This document shows, piece by piece, positions 34,918 through 64,000 of a stretch of DNA of 64,000 nt. Below the pieces are notes generated by a model. That model was given only the letters and a program-made list of their open reading frames with translations, was not told where the DNA came from and made no database searches. Made by a program: the position numbers and the translations under genes. This DNA comes from a virus (Duplodnaviria > Caudoviricetes). Numbering within the stretch: the first letter of the stretch is position 1; every line of letters starts with the position of its first letter. The stretch lies in IMG/VR virus record IMGVR_UViG_3300047160_018490, positions 1-64,000 of that record; one strand, given 5' to 3'.

Positions 34918-36072
34918 CTACTTGAGGATGATGTAGGGACTCACCATAGTGGTTCCATCCTGTAAGGTTATGGCAGATTGAACCTGGGGCTTGCCATCTG
35001 CCCGCAACCAGACCCTGAAGTCGGTCTGGTTTGTCTTGAAGGCTGGTCCCAGAGTGTCTGCATCAATGAGGACTTCCTGCCTCATACCGACTACGTAAAG
35101 CCAGGGATCGAAGAAGATCAGGTCACCAAGAGAGCCCAGGGTGGACAACTTCTCTGTGATGAAGACCGGCCTGGTGAGGAGGCTCCCCACCTGGCCGCCC
35201 TCATCGTTGGCCTCCACGTTCAGGAAGAAGTTGGCCACCTGGATGAGCTGGGCAACACACGCAGGGGAAGAGGCCCAGATGGCGTTCTTCCAGGAGAAAG
35301 GCAACATCGCCGCTGCCATGTTGGCGATATCTACCTGGAGGATCTGGCTTGGTGTGTGCCTGGATACTGTCTTGGCTGCGGGGGCGTTGATGATCCCCAG
35401 AGGCATCTGGTTGGAGGTGCCTGTGCCCTGGAGGAAGGCATATTCCAGATACCACGCTGCCGCCATCCCGAAGAGCTTCAGGAGGTGATCCTCGCCCTCC
35501 GTGTTAGCGTCCTCCAACCAGTCATTAGAGACCGTGGCGTAGCCCAGAAGGTCCCACGCTGTGAGGGGGTCACTCCTGAACTTGGGCTCTGTTTCGGAGG
35601 GGGCTTGCGAGGTGCCCCACTTGAAGATGAGCCCACCGAAGAAGGGAGAGGTGGCTGCCGACTGGGCCGTCTCGGCATCCACCTTTGGACACTCAGTGGT
35701 GAGGGAGCGCATGGGGATCACATGCGCTCGCGGGTAAATGAAGCTGTTCTCGCTGATGGCCTGGAGGAGCTGGTTGGTAAAGTCCGTAGGCACCAGGTAG
35801 CCACCAACGGCACCCGAGGTCTCTCCCATCGCCGCCTTCTGCACCTGGCCGGGAAGGACACGGAAGGGGCTCCGATAGTGCTTCTGGAGGATGTCTTCTC
35901 CAGCCATTCGGGTGGGTTCAGAGAAGGGGTCCCTGGCAGCCCTTACAGCCTTCAGGAAGCCTGTGAAGGACCTCCGGTGGGGAACCTCCAGAGGGGGAGC
36001 GCCAACCGGGCCACCCCCACGAACCAGGGGGGGACGCATGTTTGGCTTCATTGGCAGTGTCGATACGGCCAT
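34918..36072 (-). CDS. HK97-fold major capsid protein, paralog 2
   Basis: KAAMGETSGAVGGYLVPTDF, AFLQGTG..MPLGIINAPA, RVWLRADGKP. Confidence 0.9.
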   Translation of the reverse strand: MAVSTLPMKPNMRPPLVRGGGPVGAPPLEVPHRRSFTGFLKAVRAARDPFSEPTRMAGEDILQKHYRSPFRVLPGQVQKAAMGETSGAVGGYLVPTDFTNQLLQAISENSFIYPRAHVIPMRSLTTECPKVDAETAQSAATSPFFGGLIFKWGTSQAPSETEPKFRSDPLTAWDLLGYATVSNDWLEDANTEGEDHLLKLFGMAAAWYLEYAFLQGTGTSNQMPLGIINAPAAKTVSRHTPSQILQVDIANMAAAMLPFSWKNAIWASSPACVAQLIQVANFFLNVEANDEGGQVGSLLTRPVFITEKLSTLGSLGDLIFFDPWLYVVGMRQEVLIDADTLGPAFKTNQTDFRVWLRADGKPQVQSAITLQDGTTMVSPYIILK

Positions 36073-36377: not shown

Positions 36378-37931
36378 TCAGTTTAGCACAACAAACGGCG
36401 AGATCGTCCATCCCGCCTGGTCCGTGATGGCGTTGTTCAGCCAGGGCTTGCCATCGCACCGGGCGATGACCCGCCACGCCAACTGGTTGTTGCGGAAGAG
36501 GTAATGCGGGCTGACATCAATCTGCATGTCCAACCGCATGCCGATGACGTAGCGGCTCCAATCCACCAGCATCACGTCGCCCTTGGTTCCAAGCTGCGGC
36601 AGCTTCTCGGTGAAGAAGACTGGCAAGCCGTTCAAGAAGGCGTTGGGGAGCTTGGAGGCAGCGGGGCCCCTGTCCGTGGTCATCGTGGGATTGACCCACA
36701 CGAGGCGGTTGCCGGCCGGGAAGGACGAGGATGGAGAGGCGGCGTTGCCCCAACCTCCATCGACCATCATCAGGAGCTGAGGCAGCACGCTCTGATGCAT
36801 GATCCAGGCGGCGTCATCCCAGGAGCGCACCTGGAGGTGGGCCAGCATGGTGGCCGCGTCCTGGTAGAGGAAGCGCGAGGACTGGAGGCGGCCCTGGGAG
36901 ATGGTGGCCGGGGCGTTGAGGATGCCCAGAGGCATCGAGGAGCCGGCTCCCTTCCCTTGCAGATAGGCAAACTCCTTGTACCAGGTAATCGCCTGGCCAA
37001 ACAACTGCGTCAAAAGGGCGTCCAGCCCGATGCCGTTGTCTGCCAGGAGCTGGTTGCTGGAGACGCTGTAGAGGACCAGGTCCCACGCGGTCCAGACACT
37101 CTGCTTGAAGGCTGGCTCCGTCTCGTTGATGGTGGCCGCTTCAGGCTGCCACTGGGCCAGGATGCCGCCGAAGTACGGAGAGGTGCCGCTGGCCTGGACA
37201 GTGGTGATGTCCAGCATCGGCCACTCAGCCGTGCGGGAATTCATTGGCACCACCTTGGCGCGGGGCTCGATGAAGCCATCCTCGGCCGCGATGGTAAGCA
37301 GCTCCTGCATGAACTGCGGGGGGATCAGGTATCCACCCGTCTGGCCGGAGCCTTCTGCGAGGGCTGTCTTGCGCCTCTCATTCAGGAGTACCTGCCCATT
37401 GCGATAGGTGGGCACCCCCACAGTGGCAGCCTTGGCAACGGTGACGAAGCCGTGCTGCCTCTCAAACTGCTCCATGCCGTAGTTTTCGCCAAACAGTCCC
37501 TGCGACTTGGCGATGGCCTGGGCATCCTTGTTGCCTGAGAGGGCTGCCATCGAGACCAGGGCCGGGCCGATGCCGGAGATGCGAGGTCTGCCACTCTTCC
37601 GCATCCCGAACAGGTCCACTGCGGCAGGTGAGGTATAGGCCCCACCCAGGGCCTTCAACTGCTCCACCGGCCAATCGCGGTAGGAGGACTGCCGCCACCT
37701 CTCATAGGAGCGGTCGATGTCCCCGATGATGGCACCCGGAGATGGGCCAGCAGGGGTGCGAGCCATCTTCTCAACGGCTTTCTCGATCTGGTCGAGCCGC
37801 TGGAGGGCGAGAAGGTTGATGTCCGCAGGGGGACGAGGGGGCTGCTGGGGCTGGTAGCCAGGACCACCAGGAGGAGCGCCCGCAGGACGGCGCTGGGGCG
37901 GAGGAGGGGTACGAGTTGGGACGGTCGCCAT
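36378..37931 (-). CDS. HK97-fold major capsid protein, paralog 1, with long N-terminal delta/scaffold region
   Basis: KTALAEGSGQTGGYLIPPQF, AYLQGKG..MPLGILNAPA, RVIARCDGKP; strongly GC3-biased codons. Confidence 0.92.
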   Translation of the reverse strand: MATVPTRTPPPPQRRPAGAPPGGPGYQPQQPPRPPADINLLALQRLDQIEKAVEKMARTPAGPSPGAIIGDIDRSYERWRQSSYRDWPVEQLKALGGAYTSPAAVDLFGMRKSGRPRISGIGPALVSMAALSGNKDAQAIAKSQGLFGENYGMEQFERQHGFVTVAKAATVGVPTYRNGQVLLNERRKTALAEGSGQTGGYLIPPQFMQELLTIAAEDGFIEPRAKVVPMNSRTAEWPMLDITTVQASGTSPYFGGILAQWQPEAATINETEPAFKQSVWTAWDLVLYSVSSNQLLADNGIGLDALLTQLFGQAITWYKEFAYLQGKGAGSSMPLGILNAPATISQGRLQSSRFLYQDAATMLAHLQVRSWDDAAWIMHQSVLPQLLMMVDGGWGNAASPSSSFPAGNRLVWVNPTMTTDRGPAASKLPNAFLNGLPVFFTEKLPQLGTKGDVMLVDWSRYVIGMRLDMQIDVSPHYLFRNNQLAWRVIARCDGKPWLNNAITDQAGWTISPFVVLN

Positions 37932-45036: not shown

Positions 45037-46962
45037 TCAGGCTCTTCCCCCTGTGACTTGCATGATCTTCCTCCCCAGGGCCTGGATACGGGCGAGGACT
45101 TCAGGGGCGATCCTTCCCTTCACGGGGCGCCTCCGAGGAAGTGCTCTCCTTCCTGTACCCTTGCAGATGCGGCAGCCAGCTCCCTTGCAGGTGGCGCACT
45201 TGTCCATCTCGCCATCCCCTTCTTCCATGTCCTTCACCTCCTCAGCGAGGTTGGCAGGAGAGGGGCGCCTCTCCCTGGGGTTCATGAGGCCACCAGAGGG
45301 CCACCCAGGGATGACATCCTTCAGCTCCTCGGGGTTGCCCTCATCTTGCAAGTTTACCCCCGCGCCCATCCCCTGGCGGAGAGCAGCCTCTCCTGGGTCT
45401 TCCAGGTTCTCGCCAGCGCCCATGCCTTGCCTCAGGAGGGCCTCTCCCGGGTTCTGGAGGTGCTCTACCTCCTTCAGCTCATCCGGGTTGCCTTCGTCCT
45501 CCAGGTGGGCTCCTGCACCCATTCCCTGCCTCAGGGCGGCCTCTCCTGGATCGGGGAGGTTCACGCCTGCCCCCTCTCCCTGGCGAAGGGCGGCCTCACC
45601 AGGGTCTTGCAGATGGGCATCCTGCCGGTCTTCGAGGTCCTTGGGGCGCCCTCTGGCTGGAGCGCCACGAGGGGGGGTCTGCCGCATGGGGACTCCTGGG
45701 CCCTTCTGCCTGATGAGGTAGGGCCGCCCATCCTTTCCCCAGCGAATCCTGTGCTTGAGGATGAACCATTGCAGCGTCTTGGGGTTCTGGTAGCGCTCCA
45801 GGATCTCGTCATCGTCCTCGCTGCCAGGGGCTTCTCCAGCTCCACCTCCTGCGCCACCACCAGGAGGCTGATGCCCTTCCAGAGCTTCCTCTTCAGGAGT
45901 CTCCTCCCCTGCGAAAGGCTGGGCGTCACCGTGACCTCCCTCTCCCTGGTTGGTATCGAGGTCGCTGCTTCCAGGGGGCGCTGCACTTCCCTGTCCTTCA
46001 GGAGTATCTCTTCCTCTCTCCAGCTCCTCGATGGCTGCTCTCTCGATGGCCTCCAGCTCGGCCATCTGCTGCGGGTCCAGGTTACCTGCACCTGCCGCTC
46101 CCTGATCTTCTCCGCCCTGCACCACGCCATCCTGCTCACCAGGAGGAATTTCTGGCTGCCTCCCCGAGATGCCGAGGTCACCAGGAGGGATCTCTCCCTC
46201 CTCCACGCTGCCTTCTTCCCCTGGGTGGGCCTCATGGCCACCCTTCTCAGGATCGACCTCCAGGGCCTTGGAATACTTGCGCGTGTACCCCTTCTTGGCC
46301 TCTCCTCCAGGGGCGCCGATGCCGTGATGTTCAGAGAGGAGATTGCGCAGATGCTGCATGATGCCAGGGAGCTTGTCTACCCCCAGCTTCTGAAGCTCCT
46401 GAGCGATCTTGGGGTGATCCATCATCGGCAGGATATCCCGGATGTAGTCCACTCCTGTACCCAGGTGGTCGTGCAGGTCTCTGAGGACTCGCGCACTCTG
46501 CTTTACAGGAGTGGAGTCCCCTTTTCCTCCCTGAGAGGGGGTTCCTCCCCGGGGGGAAGGAGGGGTAGAAGGAGCAGGGCCCTTGATCTCATCTGGGGAG
46601 CCTACAGCCTTACCGCGGGTTCTGGTGGTCATCTGCTTGCCCTCTCTTACATTCCGGCCGAAGTGCATCAGTTCATGAGGCTCTGCGGTTGTCTCGTCAC
46701 CCCACTCATCCCAGGAGCTGCGACGGCGGTTGTAGTGCGTCCTTATCTTGATACCACCTTCATGGGGCGGAACGCTATAGACTTCTCCGTACTCACCCCT
46801 GTAAGGGTGGTTTGTACCATAGCGGATATAGACTACATCTTCAGGGTTAAATTCTTGCCCCCCTGCTTCCTCTTCCTCCGGCTGCTTCTCCTGCTCGGGA
46901 GGCCACCTCTCCTCAGGGACCAGGTAACCTCCTGCGGCTCCTGAACTTTCATTGAGGGCCAT
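45037..46962 (-). CDS. scaffold-like head protein with capsid-like N-terminal peptide, KOW/SH3-like domain, tandem repeats and CxxCxGxG finger
   Basis: ATG 46962 after GGAG gives MALNESSGAAGGYLVPEE; 4x (D/N)PGEA(A/L)LRQGxGAG; CATCKGAGCRICKGTG. Confidence 0.75.
   Translation of the reverse strand: MALNESSGAAGGYLVPEERWPPEQEKQPEEEEAGGQEFNPEDVVYIRYGTNHPYRGEYGEVYSVPPHEGGIKIRTHYNRRRSSWDEWGDETTAEPHELMHFGRNVREGKQMTTRTRGKAVGSPDEIKGPAPSTPPSPRGGTPSQGGKGDSTPVKQSARVLRDLHDHLGTGVDYIRDILPMMDHPKIAQELQKLGVDKLPGIMQHLRNLLSEHHGIGAPGGEAKKGYTRKYSKALEVDPEKGGHEAHPGEEGSVEEGEIPPGDLGISGRQPEIPPGEQDGVVQGGEDQGAAGAGNLDPQQMAELEAIERAAIEELERGRDTPEGQGSAAPPGSSDLDTNQGEGGHGDAQPFAGEETPEEEALEGHQPPGGGAGGGAGEAPGSEDDDEILERYQNPKTLQWFILKHRIRWGKDGRPYLIRQKGPGVPMRQTPPRGAPARGRPKDLEDRQDAHLQDPGEAALRQGEGAGVNLPDPGEAALRQGMGAGAHLEDEGNPDELKEVEHLQNPGEALLRQGMGAGENLEDPGEAALRQGMGAGVNLQDEGNPEELKDVIPGWPSGGLMNPRERRPSPANLAEEVKDMEEGDGEMDKCATCKGAGCRICKGTGRRALPRRRPVKGRIAPEVLARIQALGRKIMQVTGGRA
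45317..45620 (-). repeat. intragenic tandem peptide repeats
   Basis: DPGEAALRQG(E/M)GAG-like x4 and DEGNP(D/E)ELK x2. Confidence 0.8.
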
Positions 46963-46963
46963 C

Positions 46964-49900
46964 TTATTCTTCTCCATAAAGATACCCATGAGGCAGGTGC
47001 TCATAGAATGCAGCAATACTAGTCCTTGCCTCCTGGGTCAACTCATGCCAGGGGCGAGGGTAATTAGGATGGTTGGGGTCCTGAATGGGGTGGGCAGCCC
47101 TCGCGTTCTCCCAGCGAGTCATGGGATCTGGCTCGGCGTCGTTATGATATTCCTCTTCTGGCTGCTTCTCTACATCCCCTTCTAGAGCGTTCTCCTCCTC
47201 CTCTCCTCCCTCACCGAAAAGGGCGCCATGAGGTAGATGAGAGTAGAGGTCTGCTATGTGCCCTCTCTCACCTTGAGGCATCCTGTCCCAGGCAGCTCCG
47301 GGACCAATCTCTGGGTAATGCTCGGCCAGGTACTCACTGGCTCTTCCATACCTCTCCGAGGGGTCGTTGTAGGGAGTCTCCGCGGGGAGGTGTTCTTCCT
47401 CCTCTTCTCCCTCTGCCTTCTCCCACTCCTCCCAGTAGGGATCTACCTTCTCCCCGGGGGAAGAGGAAGGAGGATGTTCCCACTCCTCCCAGTAGGGCTC
47501 GGAAGTAGGAGGCTTGGGGTTTCTGGCGTCATGCTCCCACGCCTCGTAGTAGGGATCGTGGGCGGCCTTCTCCTCCTCTTCTGGCTCTACCGTATGTTCA
47601 GAAGGATGAGGCCCTGGGTCGCCTACCATCTGGAAATACTGGCGGTTGGATTGTCTCTCTCCCTGAGACAAACCTTCCCAGGGAGTAAGAGGATGTTGAG
47701 GATGCTGCTCTTCCCAGTAGCGCCTGTGAGACTCCCACCTCTCTTCAGGAGACCTGGGAGGGGGGTTAGAAGACTGCTTCTCCTCGTCTTCCACTCCCTC
47801 GTAGTATTCCTCACGCTCAAACGGCCCTGGGGTATGCTCCTCCCATTCGGGGTATTCCTCGTCCTCTGAGGCTTCAGAATGGTGCCTGGGGGTTGGTAGA
47901 GGGTGTCTGCAGCCTTCATGGTATCCCTGAGACATCTCGCTCCAGGTGGGGCGCACATGGACCCCTGGATTCAGCGCCTCCCGGTCTATGTCATGACGCC
48001 TGTGAGTTTCCCATACCTCATCCGGGGTGATACTGGCTTTTCCCTCCTCCAGAAATCTCTCATGCTCGCCTGGTTGATATTCCTCCCACTCAGGATACTC
48101 CAGGTGAGAGGGGTGTTCGGAGTGGTGGGCGGGTTCTGGATGAAAACCAGTCTCCGGGCTAACCCCTTGCAGGACATCTCTACCAGTTTGGGAAATTTCC
48201 TCCCAGGGCTCGCGGGGGCCGAAGTAGCCTATAGGATGGCGTCTTCGGAAGGATTCATACCAGTCATCGAGAGAACGGGGTGCCTTCTCCTCCTCAAAGT
48301 CCGAGACTACAGTAGCCTCCGCCCTGTGAGGACCCTCGTCCTCCTCGTGCGCGTACCTTGTAGCCTGACGGTCGCGGGTAGACTGCGAGAGTCCTTCCCA
48401 GGGCCTACCCTCTGACCCAGTCCTTCCATACCTCTCCTGGCTCTGATGGCGGGAGGTCTGGTAGCGCTCATCAGGAGTGCGGGGAGCTTTCTCTTCCTCT
48501 TCAGGGTATGCCCACTCAGGAGGCTCATTCTCTCCCAGAGGGCTTCCCCTCTCCCCTTCTCCTTCTTCCTCTTCTGGGGGGGTGTCCTCATCGTAGGGGT
48601 CCACGTAGCCAGTATGCTGTCTCAGTCCAGCGTAATAGTCCCGCAAGTTTTGGTTGAGGTCACGCCAGTGGAGGCCGGTGGTTCCCCTTCTCCTGGCAGA
48701 TTCCCACGCCTCGTCATGGGATCGGGGAGCTTTCTCTTCCTCAAGTGGCTCCCACTCAGGGTACTCCTGAATTTCGCTTTGCTCTGAGGGGTGGAAGCCA
48801 GGGTCCCTTACCATACCAGGCACGAGATCCCTCTGACCCTGGGTGAGATTCTCCCATTTTCTACCGCTGCCACTGCCTCTATCCTCTCTATATCTCCTCT
48901 CAGACTCCCACACCTCATCAGGAGCACGGCGGAAGGGCTGGCCTTCTTCCTTCCTCCTCTCCAGCCTCGCCTTCAGCCTCCTGTATTGCGGAGCTACCTT
49001 CTCCCCGATACCAGGTATCTGCTCGTTGATGCCAGGGCGAATATGAGCGGGAGGGCGAAGAGGAGCATCCTCTGCCTCGTTGATGGTCCTACCACGATTA
49101 AGCTCATCAGCATGTGCCTGAGCCTCCGCAAGAGTGTCGTGGTCCCCAGCGGAGCCAAAGAAGTAGGGGTGTTCCGGGTCAAATGTCCCCTCGGGGCCGA
49201 AGTGGGGGTGGAACTCGGTGGGGTAGACTCCATATCTCCCTGGCTGCTCGTGGTGTGGGCGAGCTTCATAGTAGGGGGCGCCTGGGTTGGCTGTAATGGC
49301 AGGATTCCCCTCTGGCTGCTTCTGTACCCCCTTCTCTGCGTCCAGCCTCCTGTAGCCAGCAGAGTGGGCCAGTTGGTAGTGCATGTCCCCAATCCAGTCA
49401 TTGGCCTCATCAATGTTTTGGGCAACGAAGACGGGATCATGGGTCATCCCTGCTGGGTGCTGGGGAGAGCGGTGGACATCAAAGGTGCCTGGCTCATCCT
49501 CTCTCTCTACCATGTGATACCAGGTCGCCGGCCTGCCTGTGCGGAGGTCGTGGATGGCCTTCCCCTCGATGCCAGGGAGCTGCTCATTCCTCGCCGGTCT
49601 GTTCTGGACCCCTCTTCCACGCCTGGCCCTCGCAGTCCCTGTCATCGTGGCCCACATTCCCTCCTGGAGCCTCCGGGCATGGGCATGGGCCTCCTCGGCA
49701 GTCTGATGCGGTGGGAGCGGGTTCTGCGGGTTTTCTATGTTACGGCGAAGAGGATGGTGCTCGGAGGGGGTGACAGCATGAGCCCCTTCCTCAGTGGGCT
49801 CAACATCCCAGTAAGGGTGCCCAGGGTTGGCCGTTACTACCGCGCCCTGCTCCTCCTCTCCTTCCACCTTGGGGGCCTTTTCCACCCCTTCTTCCAGAGC

Positions 49901-52900
49901 GTTTTCCTCTTCTTCAGGGGGTAAATGGAGATCGGGGTCCTCGTACATGCTTTCGTAATTACGCGCAATACCACCAGCATACTCTTCCGTCATGGGGCCA
50001 GTAACTGGGCCTTCTCCGTGGGAATGAAACGCTGGGTGTTCCCGCGTTCGATAGACGCTGTAGCGCCCTGGGCGAACTGGTGATAGCCTGGTCTCGTAGA
50101 ACCTGAGTTCTCCTGTCTTGGGGTCCGCCTTCTCTTCCACCCCCTCCAGACCCTTGTTGGGCTTCTCCCCTGCCTCCTCCAGCGAGGAGTAGCACACGCG
50201 ATGGGCTTTCCCCGCGTCTGCACCCTCTGCTTCCAGATCAGCGATGCAGCGCTCCATCCTCTCCGTGTGGTAGTGGTGGGGGTGCTCCACGTTGGGCTTC
50301 CGGATCTCTTCCCCTTCGAGGTCTTTCTCTTCCTCTGCTGGGTTGAGAGGAGTGCAGTTAGGAGAGAGGTGCGCCATCCGGTTGATGGACTCCTGGGCCC
50401 GCTGGTTCTGCCTCTCTGCCTCCTCTTCTGCCTCTGCCTGCGTGCAGTGGAGAGACCACCCCACTCCTGTACGGCGGGATGCTACCTGGTAAAGCTCCGG
50501 CTGCTCCTCGCTGGGGCGGACGTAGAAGTGTCCTGGGCTCTCTTCTCCTCCTTCTGCCTTCTCCCGGGGAATAGGAGATACCCTGTTCTCGTAGGGGTGG
50601 TTGAGGTCAGGGTTGTGACCCACCAGGAAGCGGTACGCAACACCTTGGACGCGCTTCCCTGTCTTGGGATCTACTGCTTTCTCCTCCTTACCCTGATCCC
50701 ACGCCTGGAAATACTGCTCGCCAGTCCAATGCCCTCTACCAGGATTGTCTGTATAGCGGTCAGCATGGGCATTCAACTCATCCGCTCGCTGCTGGGCTTC
50801 TTCGAGTTCATATCGGCCCACGTCGCGGTTTCCATCTGGATCGACAAGGGAGTGCGTGCCATCCTCATTGGGCACAACCCTCCAGTGGAGTGATTGCTTC
50901 CTTCTCTGCAAGCGGTCCCACAGCCTCTTGCACTTCTTCTCCGCGATGGTGCCACTCTCATCCTCTGGCACCTCCGTCTGATCTCCCCACTTCTCGAACT
51001 CCCTGACCTTCTCTGCTTCTGCCTCCGCCTCCGCCTGCGTCTGGTGAGAAGAGGTAAACCACACCTCCCCGTTGGCCCGTGTGTGCCGCACCAGGTAGGG
51101 ATACACCGTCCTCCCTGGGCGGTAGATGACATCTACCTTCTTCTCCACTTCCAGTTCAGGAGTGTCCCCAGTTTCGATGTCCGAGCCCTCTCCAGGGTTA
51201 GTCTCGGGAGGGATGCCTGTTCTATCAATCTCTCCAGGAGTGCCCCTTCCTGCTTCCATGTCGGCCTGGTTGGCGTCCTTCTCAGAGGGGTGAGGTGTCT
51301 CGTCTACTACTCCCATACTCCCGTGCCGCCAATTCAATTGGCTTGTGCAGTACCTTACCTCCTCTGGGGTGGCAGCGTAGTAGACATGCCTACCAGTGCG
51401 GGCATGAACGATCTCATAAGGGAGGTGCTCTATACCCGTTCTCCTGGCCTCGTAGAGGGGCTCGTCCTGGCCTGTAAGGGGGTCTTCTGTACTGTCCTTC
51501 TCTTCAGGAGCAGGGAGGTTGACTCTCGGGTTATCGGGCCCTTGCAGCTCGCCACTCATGATCCTCTGGTGGGCAGCCTCCTGGTAATCGCGGGCCATAT
51601 CCTCCGCTTCCCAGTGGGGGTGGAGGTGAGATGCCAGGCGCCCTCTACCGCCCTCTGGATGAGATCCAGTCCTATATAGAGCGTCGAAGTCCTCAATGCT
51701 GGGATGCTCCCGCAGTTCATAGAAGGGCTCCATCTTCTCCCCCGTCTTGGGGTCCAGGGCCTTCTCCTCCCTCTCCGGCTCCATCTGGTACCGCGGTGGC
51801 GTGCCTTCGGTATCCCGGACCCACTGGCGGTTTTCCTCTGCATGCCTGTCCTGCATTGCCAGCTCGTCCAGGGAGTTCTCGGCAAACTGCTCTACCTGCC
51901 TGTGGGCCTCTTCAGGAGTACGGAACCCCCCTGTGCGCAATCCAGCCTGTCCTAGAGGGTGCTGCTCCGTGCGGACGATCTGGTAGGCGCCAGGGATGTG
52001 TGGGTCCTCCTCCACGCGCCACCAGGGATGATTCTGCTTCTTCATCTCCTTGTTAGGCGCCCAGATCGTCTCCAGCAGGTTCTCCTCCGCAATGTGAGCA
52101 ATCGTCTCCGCCTCGTGCTGCGTCCTGTAGCCAGTCAGGCTTCTCGCATCCCTGCCCTCGGGGTGGAACATGGTAGGGATGACATCGAAGGTCCCTGGGT
52201 TCTCCTCGCTCTCCTGGACGTGGTAGAAGGACTTTTCCACTGCTCCTGAGAGAGCATTCTCCTCCTCTGCAGGGATGTTGGCCGCCTCCGTCCTCTGCTG
52301 GCTTACCAGATTGGCGTAGTGCCTCCTGGTGGCTTCCTGCTGCCTGGCGTGCTGAGTGGCCCATCTCGCTCCGGCGGCGGCCTCCTCATGAGATGTGTAG
52401 CCACCAAAGCCTGAGTAGCGCCCTGCCCTGCCATGAGGATGGTGCTCCGAGTAGTGAAGGTCATACCTCTCAGGGTCGTCCTCGTTCTGCTGCACCGTGA
52501 ACCAGGGAGGAGAGGTGTCTTTACTCACACTACCTCCTGCAACCTTCTGGCTCTCTTCCCAGGTAGCCTGATCCATACGGGACTGGACGGTGTCCTCGTG
52601 CATATCTCTGGCAAGTTCCCTGGCCTCTTCCGGAGTGAGGTGTCTGTGCGGTACTCGGTCTGAGGGATATTGGTGGATATTGGGGTGGTCAGGGGTCCGA
52701 AAGATCCGTGGGCGCCCGTTTTCGTCCCTGACTCCGTAGTAGGGCTTATCGTGGAAGCCCTTCTCCTCCTCATTCCTTCTGTGGATGTCCTCTGTCCTCA
52801 GAGAGACATTCTCTGCGAGCTGTGCCTGGATGCGGTCTATGACTTCCTGGGCCTCCTGAGTGGAGGTGTAAGGGCCACCACCCCAGATGGGCTTGCCCTG

Positions 52901-55900
52901 ATGGTCTCTGCCACCCAAGGGGTGCTCGTCCGTCCTCCAGATGTCATGGGTGCCTGGTACGTTGGGGCGCTCCACAATCTTGTACCAGGGCGGGCGGTCT
53001 TTTCTCACTCCTGAAGAGAGGGCATCCTCGTGGTGCTGTGGGGCATCCCACTGCTCGGGGTCTTCATTTCTAGACCATTCCAGTTGCCGTAACCCGGCTT
53101 CGGCACTGGCTTCCTCCCTGGAGTCACGGGTTGTGAGGGGGTAAGACATCAGTCCAGGAGTGGCGTAGGGATGGTGCTCACTCCTGTAGACTCCCCATCT
53201 CCCTTCAGGGGTCTGGCGGACGTGGAAGTAGCGGTATCCTTTCTCCACTCCTTCGGAGAGGGCATGTGTAACAGGAAGACCATGTCCATGACCGAGGTCA
53301 TCCGTTCTTACCTTCTCCAGGTCCTGTGCGCCATCCAGGGCGTCTTCCTCGGTGTCATAGCGGGTGGGTCCCACGGGAATGGTTTGATCCCCAGACTGGA
53401 AGAAGGGATGAGACTCAGTGCGGAAGATTCCATAACCCTCCTGATAGGGCTTGACCTCGAAGAAACCCTTCTCCACTCCTGAAGAGAGAGCAGCCTGCAA
53501 GTATTGAGGTGGGGGATGGTGTAGCGCCCTATCTTTGATACTCTCCGTTGTATCTTCCACCAGAGACTGAGCCTCTTCCCTGCTTCCCAGGAGGTAAGTG
53601 TTTACCCGCATTCCAGGTCTTCCCCAGGGATGGTGTGCAGTACGGTAAACACTCCAAAAAGTCGGGTGGTCCTCGTCTTCCCGTGCCTCGTACCACGGGC
53701 CTTGCTTCTCCACCCTCTCCTCTAACCCCCTTGCTATCCTTTCCCCCGGGGGAAGCATGGAGAATGGATGCTCTCTGGGGTTGCCTGTGCCTCTGGGGGC
53801 GTCATCATACTCCGGGCCCAAAGACTCCATGTGCCTGGCCCAGTCTCTGGCCTCTCCGTGATCCAGGAAGGAGAGATGAGAGTGCCTCACTCCTGAAGGG
53901 GAGACAACCTGGAAGTGACCCATATCCGGGTCATGCTCCACGCTCCACTTACCGGATGGTTTGTCTTCTATTGGAGGGACGTAGGGGGCGGTGGCGCCTG
54001 TGCTCTCTTCTTCCTTTCCTTTCTCCACACCTCCAGAGAGGGAGTTCTCCTCGACCTGGAGAGGGATGTCACTGATCCCTGGTTCTTCTTCACCGCGCCA
54101 CAGGTCGTACTGTCTCTGCCCAGCAGCGATCCAGGCATCCTCGTGGCTGGCATGGGTGGAGAGAGGCGCCTCATCAGGCCCATGAGGGCCGTATGGGTGG
54201 CGCCCACTTCGGTAGACTCCATACCCTCCTTCTGGGGTTGGGAGGACCAGGTAGTGGCTGTAGTTCTTCTCCACCTCTTCTCCCTGATAGACGATGGAGC
54301 CGTATGTGCCCTCAGAAGGCTCCGTCTGGCCGCCGAGGGAGTTCTCCTCGATGTCCGGAACATTCACGCCCCTGTTTTTTCCCTCCTTGTACCAACCATC
54401 TACTGCGTCCTGGAGTCTGTCTGCTCTCTCCTGCTGCTCTTCCAGAGTGTTGGGACGGAAGGGGGTTATTCCCTCTCCCATAGGATGGTGCTCAGTACGA
54501 TATAGCAGGTACAGCTTACCACCTGGGTTCTGTACAATCCGGTAGTAGGGCCTCTGGAGGGCTTTCTCCACTCCCTCCAGGGCGTCCTCCAGATCCATCC
54601 TCTCCATGAGGGTCCTGTGTGTCTGATCGTGCAGCCTCTGGGCTTCTTCCTCGGCAAGACCCTGGGTGGTATGGTCTGGAGACTCGGGAGAGGAGAGTCT
54701 TCCCTTGGGGTGGTAGGAAGACCTCCATACGTCGTAGTTCCCAGCCGGGCGCTGGTGGACCTCGTAGAAGTAGTGTGGGGATAGGTCCTTCTCCACACTG
54801 CCTTCCAGGGCATTCTCCTCATAGGCTGGAAGGCCCTGCCCCATGCCCAATCTCTCTGTCTGCATCCTCACCTCGCTAGCCGTTAGCTCGCGTGCCATGT
54901 CGTGGGCAGAACCCTCCTCAAGGCCTCCGATGATAACCATTCCTGCGTCACCACCTGGGTGGGTGGCAGAGCGGCGGACCTCGAACTGACCCTGGCGCCG
55001 GCCTTCGTGGACCTCATAGTAAGAAGGTGGTTCAGGAGTACCCTCATCTTTCTGCACACCTCCCTCCAGAGCGTGCTGCACAGGAGGGGTGTAGGGGAGG
55101 CCCTGACTCTGGCCTGCCCAGTCTGTCTCTATGCTACGAGAGCGTGCAAACCTTCTCGTCCTCTCCTGTGCGTCTGCCTCTGCCTGCTCTGGATCCTGGA
55201 AGTGGGTGATCCTGGCCTCTCCATAAGGGTGCTGGGAGGTACGCCACACCTCATGCCTCTCCCCTCTGGAGCGGACCTCGTAAAGGGGAGGAACTCCGGT
55301 GTCTTTCTCCACCCACCCAGAGAGGGAGTGCTGCACAAGGGGTGTAGGTGGTAGACCCTGCTCTCTTCCCAGTCTGGACGTGTCCATGTTCTGGTAGCGA
55401 GTGGCCCCCAGACGGTAAATATCACTTATAGTCCTGGCACGTTCGCCTGCCTCTTCCTGGGTTGAGTAAGGACCCATACCAAGGTCCTCCCCACGAGAGG
55501 GAGCGTAGGGGTGCTCCTGAGAGCGGCGAACACGCCATCCTTCTCCCTCCACCTCGTAGGGCTCATAGAACTGGGGGAGCTTCTCCAGGGCGGTGGCTAC
55601 CTCCTCAGGAGTGGCACCAGCTTTCTCTATACTTCCTTCCAGGGAGTATTGCTGTATGTGAGGGGGTTGGTTGACTGGTAGACCCTGGTTTTGCCCCAGT
55701 TCGTCTGTCAGTCTCCGCTCCCACCTTCCTGCGTAGTGCCTGGCATCCTCTTCCAGGTGAAACCTGGCCAGGGGGGAGTCTCCGTGTTCGCCAACCATCG
55801 AGGTTGCATTCCAGGGGTGGTTTGCTGTCCGGAAGACGCCATAGCCGCCCGCATGCGGGCGGACCTCGTAGAAGGACTTTTCCACGCTGCCTTCCAGGGC

Positions 55901-56131
55901 GTTCTCCTCTGGAGCTGGTGTCCTCCGGTGGCCGCCTTGGTTCACGTTTGCCTTGTCCTCATCCTCGTAGCTCTCATCGAGCTGCCTGGCTGCTTCCCTT
56001 GCAGCATCCTGCCCCCAGCGTGCAGGAAAGACCATGCTCTCCCCCATATAATGCAGGGCCGTCCTCCAGACCTCCCAGCGCCCTGCTTCCTGGTTGTAAC
56101 GAGGCTCATAGGTAGGAGATGCTTCACTCAT
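46964..56131 (-). CDS. giant acidic tandem-module protein (3055 aa), putative processed internal head polyprotein
   Basis: about 26 family-A modules (YEV...Y.V.R[ST]..HP...T.EEA..A) and about 8 family-B modules, separated by ALEGxVEK/EEEK linkers; ATGA coupling to the protease gene. Confidence 0.85.
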   Translation of the reverse strand: MSEASPTYEPRYNQEAGRWEVWRTALHYMGESMVFPARWGQDAAREAARQLDESYEDEDKANVNQGGHRRTPAPEENALEGSVEKSFYEVRPHAGGYGVFRTANHPWNATSMVGEHGDSPLARFHLEEDARHYAGRWERRLTDELGQNQGLPVNQPPHIQQYSLEGSIEKAGATPEEVATALEKLPQFYEPYEVEGEGWRVRRSQEHPYAPSRGEDLGMGPYSTQEEAGERARTISDIYRLGATRYQNMDTSRLGREQGLPPTPLVQHSLSGWVEKDTGVPPLYEVRSRGERHEVWRTSQHPYGEARITHFQDPEQAEADAQERTRRFARSRSIETDWAGQSQGLPYTPPVQHALEGGVQKDEGTPEPPSYYEVHEGRRQGQFEVRRSATHPGGDAGMVIIGGLEEGSAHDMARELTASEVRMQTERLGMGQGLPAYEENALEGSVEKDLSPHYFYEVHQRPAGNYDVWRSSYHPKGRLSSPESPDHTTQGLAEEEAQRLHDQTHRTLMERMDLEDALEGVEKALQRPYYRIVQNPGGKLYLLYRTEHHPMGEGITPFRPNTLEEQQERADRLQDAVDGWYKEGKNRGVNVPDIEENSLGGQTEPSEGTYGSIVYQGEEVEKNYSHYLVLPTPEGGYGVYRSGRHPYGPHGPDEAPLSTHASHEDAWIAAGQRQYDLWRGEEEPGISDIPLQVEENSLSGGVEKGKEEESTGATAPYVPPIEDKPSGKWSVEHDPDMGHFQVVSPSGVRHSHLSFLDHGEARDWARHMESLGPEYDDAPRGTGNPREHPFSMLPPGERIARGLEERVEKQGPWYEAREDEDHPTFWSVYRTAHHPWGRPGMRVNTYLLGSREEAQSLVEDTTESIKDRALHHPPPQYLQAALSSGVEKGFFEVKPYQEGYGIFRTESHPFFQSGDQTIPVGPTRYDTEEDALDGAQDLEKVRTDDLGHGHGLPVTHALSEGVEKGYRYFHVRQTPEGRWGVYRSEHHPYATPGLMSYPLTTRDSREEASAEAGLRQLEWSRNEDPEQWDAPQHHEDALSSGVRKDRPPWYKIVERPNVPGTHDIWRTDEHPLGGRDHQGKPIWGGGPYTSTQEAQEVIDRIQAQLAENVSLRTEDIHRRNEEEKGFHDKPYYGVRDENGRPRIFRTPDHPNIHQYPSDRVPHRHLTPEEARELARDMHEDTVQSRMDQATWEESQKVAGGSVSKDTSPPWFTVQQNEDDPERYDLHYSEHHPHGRAGRYSGFGGYTSHEEAAAGARWATQHARQQEATRRHYANLVSQQRTEAANIPAEEENALSGAVEKSFYHVQESEENPGTFDVIPTMFHPEGRDARSLTGYRTQHEAETIAHIAEENLLETIWAPNKEMKKQNHPWWRVEEDPHIPGAYQIVRTEQHPLGQAGLRTGGFRTPEEAHRQVEQFAENSLDELAMQDRHAEENRQWVRDTEGTPPRYQMEPEREEKALDPKTGEKMEPFYELREHPSIEDFDALYRTGSHPEGGRGRLASHLHPHWEAEDMARDYQEAAHQRIMSGELQGPDNPRVNLPAPEEKDSTEDPLTGQDEPLYEARRTGIEHLPYEIVHARTGRHVYYAATPEEVRYCTSQLNWRHGSMGVVDETPHPSEKDANQADMEAGRGTPGEIDRTGIPPETNPGEGSDIETGDTPELEVEKKVDVIYRPGRTVYPYLVRHTRANGEVWFTSSHQTQAEAEAEAEKVREFEKWGDQTEVPEDESGTIAEKKCKRLWDRLQRRKQSLHWRVVPNEDGTHSLVDPDGNRDVGRYELEEAQQRADELNAHADRYTDNPGRGHWTGEQYFQAWDQGKEEKAVDPKTGKRVQGVAYRFLVGHNPDLNHPYENRVSPIPREKAEGGEESPGHFYVRPSEEQPELYQVASRRTGVGWSLHCTQAEAEEEAERQNQRAQESINRMAHLSPNCTPLNPAEEEKDLEGEEIRKPNVEHPHHYHTERMERCIADLEAEGADAGKAHRVCYSSLEEAGEKPNKGLEGVEEKADPKTGELRFYETRLSPVRPGRYSVYRTREHPAFHSHGEGPVTGPMTEEYAGGIARNYESMYEDPDLHLPPEEEENALEEGVEKAPKVEGEEEQGAVVTANPGHPYWDVEPTEEGAHAVTPSEHHPLRRNIENPQNPLPPHQTAEEAHAHARRLQEGMWATMTGTARARRGRGVQNRPARNEQLPGIEGKAIHDLRTGRPATWYHMVEREDEPGTFDVHRSPQHPAGMTHDPVFVAQNIDEANDWIGDMHYQLAHSAGYRRLDAEKGVQKQPEGNPAITANPGAPYYEARPHHEQPGRYGVYPTEFHPHFGPEGTFDPEHPYFFGSAGDHDTLAEAQAHADELNRGRTINEAEDAPLRPPAHIRPGINEQIPGIGEKVAPQYRRLKARLERRKEEGQPFRRAPDEVWESERRYREDRGSGSGRKWENLTQGQRDLVPGMVRDPGFHPSEQSEIQEYPEWEPLEEEKAPRSHDEAWESARRRGTTGLHWRDLNQNLRDYYAGLRQHTGYVDPYDEDTPPEEEEGEGERGSPLGENEPPEWAYPEEEEKAPRTPDERYQTSRHQSQERYGRTGSEGRPWEGLSQSTRDRQATRYAHEEDEGPHRAEATVVSDFEEEKAPRSLDDWYESFRRRHPIGYFGPREPWEEISQTGRDVLQGVSPETGFHPEPAHHSEHPSHLEYPEWEEYQPGEHERFLEEGKASITPDEVWETHRRHDIDREALNPGVHVRPTWSEMSQGYHEGCRHPLPTPRHHSEASEDEEYPEWEEHTPGPFEREEYYEGVEDEEKQSSNPPPRSPEERWESHRRYWEEQHPQHPLTPWEGLSQGERQSNRQYFQMVGDPGPHPSEHTVEPEEEEKAAHDPYYEAWEHDARNPKPPTSEPYWEEWEHPPSSSPGEKVDPYWEEWEKAEGEEEEEHLPAETPYNDPSERYGRASEYLAEHYPEIGPGAAWDRMPQGERGHIADLYSHLPHGALFGEGGEEEENALEGDVEKQPEEEYHNDAEPDPMTRWENARAAHPIQDPNHPNYPRPWHELTQEARTSIAAFYEHLPHGYLYGEE

Positions 56132-59100: not shown

Positions 59101-62100
59101 GAACTCGAATGCTCCAGCCATGTGCCTCTGGTTCCCGCGATCTGCCTGCTGTTCTGCGGCTTCCTGGTTGGCAATGCCCTCATGGACTCGATTGCCAGTG
59201 TAGGTGTCCTGTATGTACCACTGGCCGGTGCCATCGTTGTAGGGTTGAGCCCTGTAGCGAGGAGCCTTTCTCACAGCCTTCTCCTCGGGCTCACTTTCAT
59301 CCAGCTCCTCTGAGTGGCGTGCAACCCTCTCTGCCTCCTCCTGGGGACTACTCAATGGCTCTCCCTGCCAGGAGGAGGCCGGGTGAGATTCCATCTCGTG
59401 GAGCTTGTTAGCCCTGTCTGCACTGGCCTGGGCTGCCTCTCTCCCTCCTGGGTGAGGGTGGTTCCAACCTGTGTGTGAGTCATGGATGACAGTCCCGTGC
59501 CGCGGGTGGTCCTGAACTATGTAACGCTGCTTCTCTACCACCCCTCTCTCAAAAGGGGAGGGGCCCTCTCTTCTCCCTCTCTTCAGGCCCTTCGCCATCA
59601 CCCCAGGGTAGCCCAGCCTTCCTCTCTCCCCGCGAGAGCGAAGGGGGTTGTAGTTGCTGCCCTCCAGTTGCAGCCTCGTGATGAGTTCCTTCTGCTCCTC
59701 CACCTTCTTGAGGGCCTCCATGAGGGCCTTCTCAGGAGGTAGCCCATCGTGCTCTGAGAGGGACTCAGCAAACTTGGCAAGCTCGTAGCAGTGTGCTCCG
59801 GAATAGCCTTCCGTCTTCGCCACCGCATGAGAGAGATGTTTAGGTGTGACCTTGGGCAGCCACTTCCTCAGCATCTCACTCCTGGCCTTCACCGTGGGGA
59901 GCCCAAACTCCAGCACGTCATGGAACCTCCCAGGGCGGTCAATGAGGGCATCTGGAAGGGACTCAGGGAAGTTGGTCGTTAGTACGGTAAGGACACCCTT
60001 GCTCCTTGCAATACCGTCCATCTCCGTCTTGAGGAGGTCGATGGTGGTGGGGTGAAGCCAGTTGTCAACGTCCTCCATGCAGATGATGGCCGGTGCCAGT
60101 TCCTTCGCCATCTCGAAGGCACTACCAATACCACCTACACTCCCAGCGGCGTGGAAGTCCCTGCTAGAGATCCAGATGAACGTGCCCTTGCTCTTGTTGC
60201 GCAGCACCCGCGAGGACATCGTCTTGCCAGTGCCTGGAGGGCCGGTAAGGATCACGCCTCTGTTGGCAAAGAGGATGCCCTTCTCATTGAAGAGATCCAA
60301 TGTCCTTCTAAGGGAGGTCTTGTTGTGCTCCTCCAGGAAGACATCGTCCCAACCCTCCTCCGTGCGGGGGAGAAACTCCCCTGAAAGAGAGAAGGCTTCT
60401 CCTTTGAGGAAGTTATTCTCCCTCGCCCAGGTCCATGCTTTATCAATCACCTCCTGAGAGATGGGAGCTTCCTGAAGTCTGGTAAAGGCAGTCACCTTCA
60501 GCCCGTTCCAGGTGGGCTCGAACTTCAGGACGAACTTCTCTCCACTACCTCGAAAGGCGTTGTGAGGCCCTCTACCTTTCTCCTGGTAGAGAGGGCTTCT
60601 TCCCAGGATGCCCTTCCTGATCTGCAATGGCATGCCCCTCTTGATAGGAAGCATCCCCTCGAAGAAGGCTGTCCCCTGCACGAGGAAGGTATCTCTTTGG
60701 GTGGAGTTGAGCTGGATGGTCTCGTAGACAGGGGGCGCCTCCATGCCCTTGCTCTGGTAGCCCTCCTGGAAGTTCCTCACCTCTACCAGCTTGTACCCAG
60801 AGACTGCGTGCTTGAGGCCAGTGAGGAAGGAGCCCAGTCTGGGAGAGGGAATGAGGGCGGTGTTCTGGACGAGGTCCTTTATCTCACATCCCAGGTACTT
60901 GGCCGCCACCCGGTAGATGACAGAAGCACCCACAGGAGGGGCATCCTCCATCTCCACTCCTGTATCGAAGGAGTCGAAGATAGAAGGGAGGGCCTTGTTC
61001 CAGCGCTCCCTTTTCCTTACCTCTCTCCCGGGGGAAATAGCATGCTCATGGTGTGGCTCATCACCCCAGTTGTACTCCTCTTCCTCCTCGGGGTCGAAGT
61101 GAGACATCCCCCCTTCCATTGCATCACTGGCACAGTCGTCACAGAAGTGCGCCTGGTCACTGGGCTCATCGTACTGGGGGTTGTACATGCGGGTGGTAGC
61201 AGGCCGGGTGCAGGCTCCTGAATGGTGGGGGCAGCCTGGGTCGTCACACTCGCAGGTTCCGAGGTTCTCATGTTCAGGAGTGTGTTGACCTCTGGAGCGC
61301 AGGAGTTGCTCCTCACCCTCGATGGGGATGGCGCCCTTCTCTACCTGCTTCTGAATGCAGGAAGAGGGGGAAGACTCCTGACCTTTCGTAACGATGGTGC
61401 TGCAAGGGACGCAGACGCCGCTGGGAGTCTCGCACCATCCATTCCAGCAACCAGATGCCTTTGCACAGTAGGGGAGCCACGCCTTCTGAAGCCTGGGAGA
61501 CATCCAGACCTTCTCCTGGTCATAAGCGTCCCTGATGGCTCCCTGGTTGCTTCCTACCCCTACCACAGACCATTCTGTAACGTCATACCTCTTGAAGAGC
61601 CACCCAGGCGGCATGAGAGGAGGATGCTGCGGGTGGGCCTTCCCGCTATCGAAGTCCTTCAGACCATAGTGCTCTCCTCGCTCCCTCCTGTAGGCTTCGA
61701 TGGGCACGAAGGCGATGCTGGCAGCGGAGAGTATCCTTCTCTTCACCTTGCCATAGATGAAGTCCGCATCCGGATCAGCGCGATCAAAGTAGCCTACTGC
61801 ACGTATCCGGTTCTCTTCAGGATAGACAGTGATGCGCCCATCGGGGGAGCGAGATACTCCAATAGGGATCTCCCACCCCTGCTGCTGGTGGCCGAAGAAG
61901 ATGACCGGGTTGCGTGCGTAGTTCTCCAGTTGGGCGCCCAGAGGCACCACCACGTCACCATCCCTATCCTCATCCAGGTTGGTGATGACGAAGGGGATGC
62001 TGCCTTCGTCATCGTTTGCTTCCCCTGGGAGAGCAGCTCCTGGAGTAACGAGGCCGAGGGTGTTTTCCTTCCCAAGCTGGACCCAGGAGTAGGCGGAGAG

Positions 62101-62235
62101 GGCCTTGGGAAGGGAAATGACCCCCCTCCGCGTCATCTCCTGGAGGGAGGTGTAGCGGTCCTGAACCTTGTCAATGACTGGGTGGAGGATAATAGGAGAG
62201 CCCTCAAGGAGAAAAGTGGGCAAAGAGGCTCGCAC
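56128..62235 (-). CDS. HK97-type prohead protease fused to AAA+ ATPase and repeated cargo-like modules (2035 aa)
   Basis: VITNLDEDRDGD, NPVIFFGH, AASIAF, EWSVV...N (protease His/Ser); GPPGTGKT, ICMEDVD, TTNFPESLPDALIDRPGRF (AAA); start codon uncertain. Confidence 0.9.
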   Translation of the reverse strand: MRASLPTFLLEGSPIILHPVIDKVQDRYTSLQEMTRRGVISLPKALSAYSWVQLGKENTLGLVTPGAALPGEANDDEGSIPFVITNLDEDRDGDVVVPLGAQLENYARNPVIFFGHQQQGWEIPIGVSRSPDGRITVYPEENRIRAVGYFDRADPDADFIYGKVKRRILSAASIAFVPIEAYRRERGEHYGLKDFDSGKAHPQHPPLMPPGWLFKRYDVTEWSVVGVGSNQGAIRDAYDQEKVWMSPRLQKAWLPYCAKASGCWNGWCETPSGVCVPCSTIVTKGQESSPSSCIQKQVEKGAIPIEGEEQLLRSRGQHTPEHENLGTCECDDPGCPHHSGACTRPATTRMYNPQYDEPSDQAHFCDDCASDAMEGGMSHFDPEEEEEYNWGDEPHHEHAISPGREVRKRERWNKALPSIFDSFDTGVEMEDAPPVGASVIYRVAAKYLGCEIKDLVQNTALIPSPRLGSFLTGLKHAVSGYKLVEVRNFQEGYQSKGMEAPPVYETIQLNSTQRDTFLVQGTAFFEGMLPIKRGMPLQIRKGILGRSPLYQEKGRGPHNAFRGSGEKFVLKFEPTWNGLKVTAFTRLQEAPISQEVIDKAWTWARENNFLKGEAFSLSGEFLPRTEEGWDDVFLEEHNKTSLRRTLDLFNEKGILFANRGVILTGPPGTGKTMSSRVLRNKSKGTFIWISSRDFHAAGSVGGIGSAFEMAKELAPAIICMEDVDNWLHPTTIDLLKTEMDGIARSKGVLTVLTTNFPESLPDALIDRPGRFHDVLEFGLPTVKARSEMLRKWLPKVTPKHLSHAVAKTEGYSGAHCYELAKFAESLSEHDGLPPEKALMEALKKVEEQKELITRLQLEGSNYNPLRSRGERGRLGYPGVMAKGLKRGRREGPSPFERGVVEKQRYIVQDHPRHGTVIHDSHTGWNHPHPGGREAAQASADRANKLHEMESHPASSWQGEPLSSPQEEAERVARHSEELDESEPEEKAVRKAPRYRAQPYNDGTGQWYIQDTYTGNRVHEGIANQEAAEQQADRGNQRHMAGAFEFIGGNAPPTTHEAETERINRLSGTLRAVEDTDEQGRPIEEEEKDLQKGRWAAGQYPNGGTYIRHTEYGHDIPQPPGTTLEQAQATADRASRDYGESSSHQWQRDPKGTPEEEMERINRRAEDLDKIEGPEEKAASEPEPDPNEIGRPEHDPEWGTVGEHEEDWDWHPPYGPNPEEWRHDIPPISMASERARINQRSREMQAREVLEGDVDPPTSGEDKKGLRKADRPEGVGPHHNEYTPEGFATDEREWAFGSGHPRDWVYDPQYTSASEEARIARRSRELARLEGDTRSPTFGEALQGIDPPEDLIPHPEESEDPVGEHSENNPGFLHRIPKHFKGSCGCKNCSRGKACPCKKDVVEKALIYEVRPPDEGSTLYRVHRSPSHPQQQQYPYAIYETHSEEEAYAEARRLHARYLDTHAILDEIGKSAEGSPSETRKALDTQGGELPQVSSEALQAADFITYGEGVEGSNCGNCQYNQGGICQEKRIKGQPVNKRNCCAYWDAPGTLRAWEGGESTPEKGVRKKLIYEVRSTNDDPPLYGVYRTDTHPWGPEEAPVYQTDHEAQAAEYARAMHARYMNLRTVREEEHKAARKALYYEVRPMKNGKFGVYRTESHPYGVGEGYPILDTGTEEEAHRFARGLHANYVDETADTAEYHKAIQKDFPALYEVLPHPTENDRFGVFRTSNHPSGAPPTGGPPVGAWTDWYRAEENRDRLQRALANKLTTEAETMKSLQKGPPPLPRRPAKPTALVHQNPEDAPFDVGAGQGEEPPQPSTASKPGPPEMPYYEVRDHPEGGYGIHRSEHHPMGASDEPAVRTDTLDRANSYVSHLHNQAASNLLLHTNRRAPEKTPPPSPASLPPPLPQAGGGAPRRRPLRAEEIPQGPGATIRSLQREVEEEKSIEKVDPKDITWVEDPEDIYEVRPHEESHLSGLYQIIHRPSGEALWSQSSHLGGLLDWVERHNRQYRETPKPSDKAFSPELLHRIEALARRIGV

Positions 62236-63624: not shown

Positions 63625-63999
63625 TTACCGCTTTCTGTAAAGGGGAGACTTACGGAGGATGCTCTTGCTTTCCTCAGGAGGGGGAGGAAAAGCGGGCTCT
63701 TCCTTCCCGGGACGCAGCCTAATGCGAGACATACCCGCCGCTGTCCTTCCCTGGTCAGAGTCCGGGTTGTTTGACCCTCTGGACCCTTCTGTACCTGCTG
63801 GAGACCGAGCCCTTTCACCTTCCAGGAGCATGTCCTCTTCGATCTGGGTAAGCGGGTCAGGAGTATGCTCTGGTTGCTTCTCCACTTCTTCCTCTGGAGG
63901 GGCTTCCTCTTCCAGATCCCTTTGCATACGCTGACCCTCTGGGGAATTCCAGAACCGTAACCTCTCCTGCTCTATACTCCCCTCCGAGCGTCCCGCTGA
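63625..63999 (-). CDS. partial CDS (C-terminal acidic tail; possibly portal or head protein)
   Basis: frame open to the window edge; contains EEEVEK|Q; identity is inferred from synteny only. Confidence 0.5.
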   Translation of the reverse strand, partial: SAGRSEGSIEQERLRFWNSPEGQRMQRDLEEEAPPEEEVEKQPEHTPDPLTQIEEDMLLEGERARSPAGTEGSRGSNNPDSDQGRTAAGMSRIRLRPGKEEPAFPPPPEESKSILRKSPLYRKR

Positions 64000-64000
64000 G

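Follow-up and report, generated by a model that had tools for sequence, protein, structure and literature searches.

What keeps lysine (Lys) out of the modules of a giant phage protein and places it at the ends of the linkers between them? The protein is P0001, a 3055-residue polyprotein by open reading frame (ORF) call (positions 46964..56131), encoded in a 64,000-nucleotide (nt) window that comprises bases 1-64000 of the IMG/VR record IMGVR_UViG_3300047160_018490 (Duplodnaviria; Caudoviricetes; linear, 77.9 kb, estimated 77% complete); all window features given here lie on the minus strand. An earlier note on this DNA had read the pattern as a written cleavage code. We found that two repeat families of P0001 nearly exclude Lys from their modules and that their linkers end in Lys within a recurrent motif. 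We consider it fairly probable, on the sequence evidence below, that the linker Lys mark the sites after which a protease of the phage cuts, with the Lys-free modules surviving.

Two parts make up P0001. Residues 1-2378 (48998..56131) hold 21 type-A modules together with a mixed stretch at residues 1546-2005 that includes module types other than A and B, and residues 2379-3055 (46967..48997) hold eight type-B repeats, mostly bordered by E-E-E-K/A (a slash marks a candidate cut). The type-A modules were defined without reference to Lys, with a self-built hidden Markov model (HMM) iterated from one repeat; it found 21 cores in P0001 and five in the product of the adjoining gene, P0002.

Is the scarcity of Lys specific to the modules? 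P0001 as a whole contains 2.55% Lys (78 residues), 8.41% Arg (257) and 14.2% Glu. Within residues 1-2340, we found 5 Lys and 104 Arg in the type-A cores (1042 residues) relative to 59 Lys and 88 Arg in the remaining 1298 residues (Fisher p = 1e-10). Similarly, the K/(K+R) ratio is 0.046 in the cores, whereas the 33 other ORFs of the window, which contain 3.48% Lys, have a ratio of 0.405 (binomial p = 6e-18). Across all 20 residues, Lys shows the strongest depletion in the cores (odds ratio (OR) 0.10), with no depletion of Glu (OR 0.87) and an enrichment of Phe, Tyr, His and Arg. Of the 104 core Arg codons, 47 (AGA or AGG) could become Lys codons by a single transition; the scarcity of Lys is therefore selected rather than mutational. 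The eight type-B cores (residues 2403-3048), which are unrelated to type A, contain 1 Lys and 45 Arg. Hence, Lys avoidance is not merely inherited from one ancestral module. The five type-A cores of P0002 contain 2 Lys and 24 Arg. Lys-free stretches in P0001 also exceed compositional expectation, as in a lysine desert. The claim that the modules are poor in Lys and use Arg in its place was thus borne out in both families.

What distinguishes the Lys that remain? A Lys lies 2-19 residues upstream of every type-A core, and Lys-to-Lys gaps of 60-110 residues occur 27 times in P0001 relative to 12.5 ± 2.9 times in shuffled sequences (0 of 20,000 shuffles reach 27). Shuffling, a permutation check of the kind suggested in the earlier note, thus favors its pattern for the spacing of Lys, and the core counts above favor it for the low frequency of Lys in the cores. 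Glu precedes 38 of the 78 Lys of P0001 relative to 27 of the 257 Arg (p = 4e-12), the residue after Lys (P1′) is mostly Ala or Asp, and there are 35 copies of the motif [VILE][EQRSTG]K where shuffles give 9.3 ± 2.8; the count for [VIL][EQRST]K is 21. The boundary tripeptides V-E-K, E-E-K, V-Q-K, V-R-K and E-G-K, which had been picked out by eye, are present in 30 copies, 27 of them followed by Ala, Gly, Ser, Asp or Gln as described.

The linkers carry a second motif as well. (E)NAL(E/S)G had been said to precede Lys often, and all 14 A/S-L-E/S-G-type motifs of P0001 lie at most 10 residues upstream of a Lys. A-L-E is present at only about one third of the boundaries, and the type-B and other boundaries have E-E-K alone. 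An example is the linker E-N-A-L-E-G-S-V-E-K at residues 76-85 (55877..55906), where the next module begins 2 residues past the Lys. Cutting P0001 in silico after each Lys that does not precede Pro yielded 36 pieces of at least 40 residues, which cover 86% of the protein.

Could a protease reach the linker Lys? We modeled residues 86-170 of P0001 with AlphaFold, using the 21 paralogues as the alignment, and obtained a mean predicted local distance difference test (pLDDT) score of 78.5. In the model, residues 3-63 form a β-hairpin, then another strand and a helix of 22 residues, and this core is mostly at pLDDT 85-97 with one lower-confidence loop. The tail (pLDDT 55-64) is predicted to be disordered, holds Q-G-L-P followed by A-L-E-G-x-V-E-K, and terminates at the Lys. 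Since the Lys ends this low-confidence tail, the model suggests that it is within reach of a protease. The fold had no match in the PDB by Foldseek at E ≤ 0.001, and in the VIA-align wide comparison its best Z of 5.2 was under the noise level; a nucleic-acid-binding fold for the module was unsupported by both comparisons. P0001 itself had no Pfam or PHROG match.

Which enzyme could perform the cutting? P0002 (56128..62235) is a 2035-residue fusion of a prohead protease, an AAA+ ATPase and modules; its stop codon shares ATGA with the ATG of P0001, and AGGAGG lies 9 nt upstream of that ATG. The protease domain, placed by profile and alignment at approximately residues 60-260 (61456..62058), matches phrog_80, head maturation protease (E = 1.2e-8), and HK97 gp4; the match to gp4 was obtained with BLASTP (E = 7e-7, in the region of the catalytic His) as well as with hhalign (113 columns, 77%, E = 2e-5). 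The hhalign alignment places F-F-G-H on F-F-N-H65 and S-I-A-F on S114-V-G-F of HK97 gp4, whose catalytic residues are His65 and Ser114, and the corresponding His and Ser are both invariant in four relatives. There was no Pfam match to the protease even at E = 10, and neither the protease nor capsid protein 2 had a match in searches of PDB sequences. By these profile and pairwise matches, the N-terminus of P0002 is an HK97-type prohead serine protease (MEROPS S78 / phrog_80).

After which residue would this protease cut? In HK97, the capsid protein is cut at K103/S104 (PMC10275583), and the solved mature chains comprise residues 104-385, preceded by Lys. The window encodes two capsid proteins of the HK97 fold, both matching phrog_10: capsid protein 1 (36378-37931; 517 residues; E = 4e-32), with the junction R-R-K188/T-A-L at 37362..37376, and capsid protein 2 (34918-36072; 384 residues; E = 2e-25), with V-Q-K79/A-A-M at 35830..35844. 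Both junctions had been proposed, as V-Q-K/A and R-K/T, and both are present. The junction Lys is invariant in 14 capsid proteins: the two of this phage, five encoded on three related phage contigs and seven of Planctomycetota prophages. In these, it lies 11 residues before the N-arm motif G-G-Y-x-V-P, where the variable N-terminal part gives way to the conserved body. In the phages, residues P3-P1 of the junction are V-Q-K, V-R-K, V-T-K or R-R-K, and many linkers are alike (V-E-K, V-Q-K, V-R-K). The delta region of capsid protein 1 also holds a paired I-E-K/A-V-E-K/M (37770-37800) in the K-x-x-x-K form found in P0002. Moreover, the linker core A-L-E-G-S (55877-55906 and other type-A linkers) resembles A-L-x-E-G-S of the capsid N-arm (37330-37368; 35800-35836); this likeness could be due to chance or to a common docking or recognition element.

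P0002 provides a further site. Its AAA+ part (59611..61008; Pfam PF00004 at residues 661-778, E = 5e-16) is directly preceded by E-V-R-K/R (K408; 61009..61023). In the related contig L006, the AAA-scaffold gene is 65% identical in its N-terminal half to this AAA+ part, in an alignment that begins at residue 2 of its product. Hence, the Lys of E-V-R-K/R lies one residue before the alignment start and corresponds to the gene border in L006. The case for Lys as the P1 residue of this phage protease is good, though indirect, and draws on three independent lines: the HK97 type of the enzyme, the invariant junction Lys of the capsid proteins, and V-R-K at the equivalent of a gene border. The C-terminal residues 901-2035 of P0002 (56131..59535) consist of Lys-poor modules, five of them of type A, with single or paired K-x-x-x-K separators; the paired sites had been noticed before and are present. 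Similarly, E-V-E-K/Q had been reported for the gene at the edge of the window (423 codons, beside the portal gene; 3′ part at 63625..64000, continuing to 64896 of the record), and we found two such sites, G-E-V-E-K/Q and E-E-V-E-K/Q, in the disordered tail of its product.

How does P0001 fit among the head genes? On the minus strand, their order is terminase, portal, the 423-residue gene, DnaJ, P0002, P0001, P0003, small genes and the two capsid genes. P0001 thus lies within the head morphogenesis block and adjoins both the protease gene (P0002) and the gene for the scaffold-like, 659-residue P0003 (45037..47016), which starts 1 nt past the P0001 stop codon or 15 nt earlier in frame and has a normal Lys content. 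The C-terminal 15-20 residues are alike in P0002 (56131-56190) and P0003 (45037-45110) and form an amphipathic helix, which may be a capsid-targeting signal.

Protease, AAA and scaffold genes are arranged differently in three related phage contigs. L004 (5298-8375) and L005 (440-3502) encode protease-scaffold fusions without AAA, and L006 (2260-7418) encodes the protease and an AAA-scaffold protein in separate genes; the corresponding part of the window is 59611-62235. The protease and scaffold proteins of these relatives contain 5-8% Lys and no modules. Since the relatives are without modules, the approximately 4000 module residues are an insertion specific to this lineage; the unit that received them normally undergoes co-assembly and digestion, and the inserted modules are the only Lys-free parts of the protease-scaffold unit.

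These results suggest the following mechanism. P0002, P0001 and P0003, the products of late genes that overlap or abut, would form an enlarged protease-scaffold unit of a tailed-phage head. Within the procapsid, the serine protease of HK97 type with which P0002 begins would cut after Lys, with a preference for Val, Ile, Leu or Glu at P3 and for Glu, Gln or Arg at P2. It would trim both capsid proteins at their invariant junction Lys and digest the Lys-rich scaffold parts to small peptides, and P0001 and the C-terminal half of P0002 would be cut in the linkers only. Approximately 36 mini-proteins from P0001 and about a dozen from P0002 would survive; these would be acidic, rich in His and Arg, and 40-110 residues long. 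The modules would survive digestion because they are purged of Lys, and the pieces may then either remain in the head as cargo for ejection or exit in the manner of scaffold fragments. The cutting, Lys as P1 and the packaging of the chains are all predicted from the sequence. Since folded head proteins keep a normal Lys content (2.4-3.3% in the capsid bodies and 4.4% in the 778-residue portal protein), Lys is evidently tolerated in stable folds, and the modules may need full protection on account of their small size and possible unfolding for ejection.

Several observations weigh against cleavage after the linker Lys. Residues 1546-2005 of P0001 contain 4.6% Lys, many outside the motif, such as those of three D-P-K-T-G turns. 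Hence, the claim that Lys is almost confined to linkers stands for both repeat families and fails for this stretch. The reading as a cleavage code is thus supported in part: the modules do avoid Lys and the linkers do end in Lys, but not every Lys fits the motif. All predicted pieces are acidic (net charge -1 to -18), which is unusual for proteins next to DNA and argues somewhat against storage there. We recognized no C-terminal helix of the P0002/P0003 type in P0001, which leaves its route into the capsid unexplained. The AlphaFold model of the protease, made from a four-sequence alignment, reached a pLDDT of only 34. In the capsid proteins, the junction Lys is part of a conserved N-arm motif, so its conservation could have a structural reason. 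Lys as P1 is known from the one HK97 junction, and other proteases of the same fold also use other residues; the prohead proteases of T4 and the phiKZ group cut after Glu (PMC10052503, PMC9026906). Finally, P0001 has no orthologue in the collections searched, so paralogues within this phage are the sole replicates for site conservation.

Is another process a better explanation? The protease might cut the linkers elsewhere, most plausibly after the Glu of A-L-E, with Lys serving as a P′ determinant or as a second trimming site. All 14 A/S-L-E/S-G-type motifs are indeed located in linkers, the linker motif resembles the capsid N-arm, and the sites of T4- and phiKZ-type proteases are L/I-x-E or S/A/G-x-E (PMC9026906, PMC10052503). 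However, the type-B and other boundaries, with E-E-K only, offer no such site, and neither Glu nor S/A/G-x-E (86 copies) is avoided in the cores, whereas Lys is. Lys also lies upstream of A-L-x-E in the capsid proteins and downstream of A-L-E in the linkers, so no single Glu rule covers both, and the protease is of the HK97 type rather than the T4 type. Cleavage after Glu therefore appears improbable, and the Glu of A-L-E, which had been named beforehand as an alternative P1, is disfavored. A trypsin-like protease of the host or of another source could instead cut the chain after Lys once it has been ejected, since the Lys pattern by itself is silent on which enzyme acts. This we regard as very unlikely, because the P0001 gene lies between the protease and scaffold genes, modules are fused to the protease itself, and the linker motif is common to the capsid maturation junction; moreover, the part of the window's ORFs that was scanned held no further protease gene.

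Head-protease processing might also be absent altogether. The Lys deserts would then permit escape from Lys-directed tagging, such as pupylation in the host, or would reflect an Arg-, Tyr- and His-rich "sticker" through which the scaffold core associates with itself, and the linker Lys would be incidental. For phages of actinobacteria, lysine deserts have been discussed as an anti-pupylation trait (PMC13696103, PMC10665810), one of the five Planctomycetota genomes that carry related prophages has Pup ligase genes, and the enrichment of Phe, Tyr, His and Arg in the cores would suit self-association. However, the absence of processing leaves unexplained the conserved Lys motif at each disordered tail end, the match of the linker motif to the capsid junction and V-R-K at the equivalent of a gene border; a self-associating scaffold core leaves the linker motif unexplained as well. 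Moreover, Lys content is normal in the phage's other proteins, and Pup ligase is absent from four of the five candidate host genomes, some of which are possibly incomplete. We consider the absence of processing unlikely, and cleavage after the linker Lys by the prohead protease remains the explanation that we prefer.

How would such cleavage compare with known systems? HK97 gp4/gp5 has a protease of this type, whose catalytic His and Ser align with those of P0002, a cut after Lys approximately 10-15 residues before the N-arm motif G-x-L/Y-x-x-P, and a Lys-rich scaffold part that is digested; unlike the present phage, HK97 lacks a cargo polyprotein and an AAA+ fusion and has only one capsid protein. 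In the present phage, the same rule has apparently spread to approximately 50 linkers, with the modules purged of Lys. The internal proteins of T4 and the inner-body and ejection proteins of phiKZ/SPN3US are likewise trimmed or cut at short motifs inside the procapsid (PMC9026906, PMC10052503, PMC7411985). However, their P1 is Glu, and they come from separate genes with one to few sites, whereas P0001 is one 3055-residue chain of approximately 36 modules, mostly of two paralogous families. To our knowledge, depletion of the P1 residue has not been reported for head substrates of the T4/phiKZ type.

P0001 also resembles the polyvalent proteins of phages and conjugative elements (Iyer et al. 2017, PMC5512222). 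These are likewise giant late proteins of many modules, which are believed to enter the cell together with the DNA and to be set free by proteolysis. Those string together different enzymes, usually with a zincin-like peptidase of their own; in contrast, P0001 is built of small non-enzymatic modules without a Pfam match, and its peptidase would be the prohead protease. We rejected P0001 as a polyvalent protein, since it has no enzymatic domains by Pfam or PHROG and consists mostly of two small-repeat families.

Lysine deserts are long Lys-free stretches kept by selection against a Lys-directed process (PMC13696103, PMC10665810, PMC10169902), as the modules appear to be. The known cases are tied to tagging with ubiquitin or Pup, whereas the likely pressure here is a Lys-specific viral endoprotease, and a 2026 review of lysine deserts states that Lys depletion is not recognized as evasion of other proteolytic systems. 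A lysine desert directed against an endoprotease rather than against tagging would be new. If cleavage after the linker Lys is true, sequence alone would reveal what a viral protease recognizes and which products it releases, and a single gene of a tailed phage could give rise to dozens of small head proteins, in the manner of RNA virus polyproteins. It would also be the first case known to us of a lysine desert that shields against an endoprotease.

A more far-reaching idea, which we put forward tentatively and think possible rather than probable, is a polyprotein strategy in which two giant genes yield approximately 50 mini-proteins through a Lys-specific protease fused, Lon-like, to an AAA+ unfoldase; it would digest whatever exposes accessible Lys and spare the modules that evolved to be Lys-free, with the absence of a single residue sorting disposable scaffold from retained cargo. 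The fusion of protease and AAA+ in this head protein recalls the unfoldase-proteases of the Lon or FtsH type. In practice, P1-residue depletion between recurrent linkers would be a simple screen for cargo in other HK97-type phages, and cuts after Lys would be invisible to tryptic proteomics.

Do the modules occur elsewhere? A near-length search of 5.8 billion proteins gave no homologues of P0001, and IMG/VR scans with P0001 and with the back-translated linker pattern gave no matches; five matches from a metagenome scan were dismissed as chance, since they lay in wrong frames. The type-A and type-B HMMs had no match in eight Planctomycetota prophage loci. Against 1.84 billion representatives, the type-A profile gave six weak matches (E of 5e-6 or worse), none of them polyproteins. 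These only outside matches (P0004-P0009) are small proteins of 22-residue tandem repeats with the hairpin motif x-Y-R-T-x-x-H-P-x-G, and they are not Lys-poor.

Which host does the phage infect? Capsid relatives at 39-47% identity occur in eight Planctomycetota/Gemmataceae assemblies (L015-L022), in small HK97-like prophages. Hence, the host phylum is probably Planctomycetota, judging from capsid similarity. The nearest capsid match to a cultured phage, among those listed, was Streptomyces phage Dagobah (34%), the listed best matches of capsid and protease to cultured phages included no Mx1-type record, and a capsid profile search gave marginal matches only, to actinophage capsids.

The start of P0003 mimics the mature capsid N-arm, K/M-A-L-N-E-S-S-G ... 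G-G-Y-L-V-P (46900-46977), with a Lys, ten residues and then G-G-Y-L-V-P; in L004 (approximately 6900-6960) and L005 (approximately 1500-1580), the mimic lies inside the protease-scaffold fusion, right after a Lys. P0003 (45100-45240) and the scaffolds of the relatives carry paired DnaJ-type zinc-finger motifs (C-x-x-C-x-G-x-G), and a J-domain gene (62972-63622; PF00226, E = 3e-20) lies between the portal-side genes and the protease. The paired, paralogous HK97-fold capsid genes (34918-37931) are kept in L004 and L005, with delta regions of approximately 190 and 80 residues. The related prophages apparently have one capsid gene, which looks frameshifted in L022.

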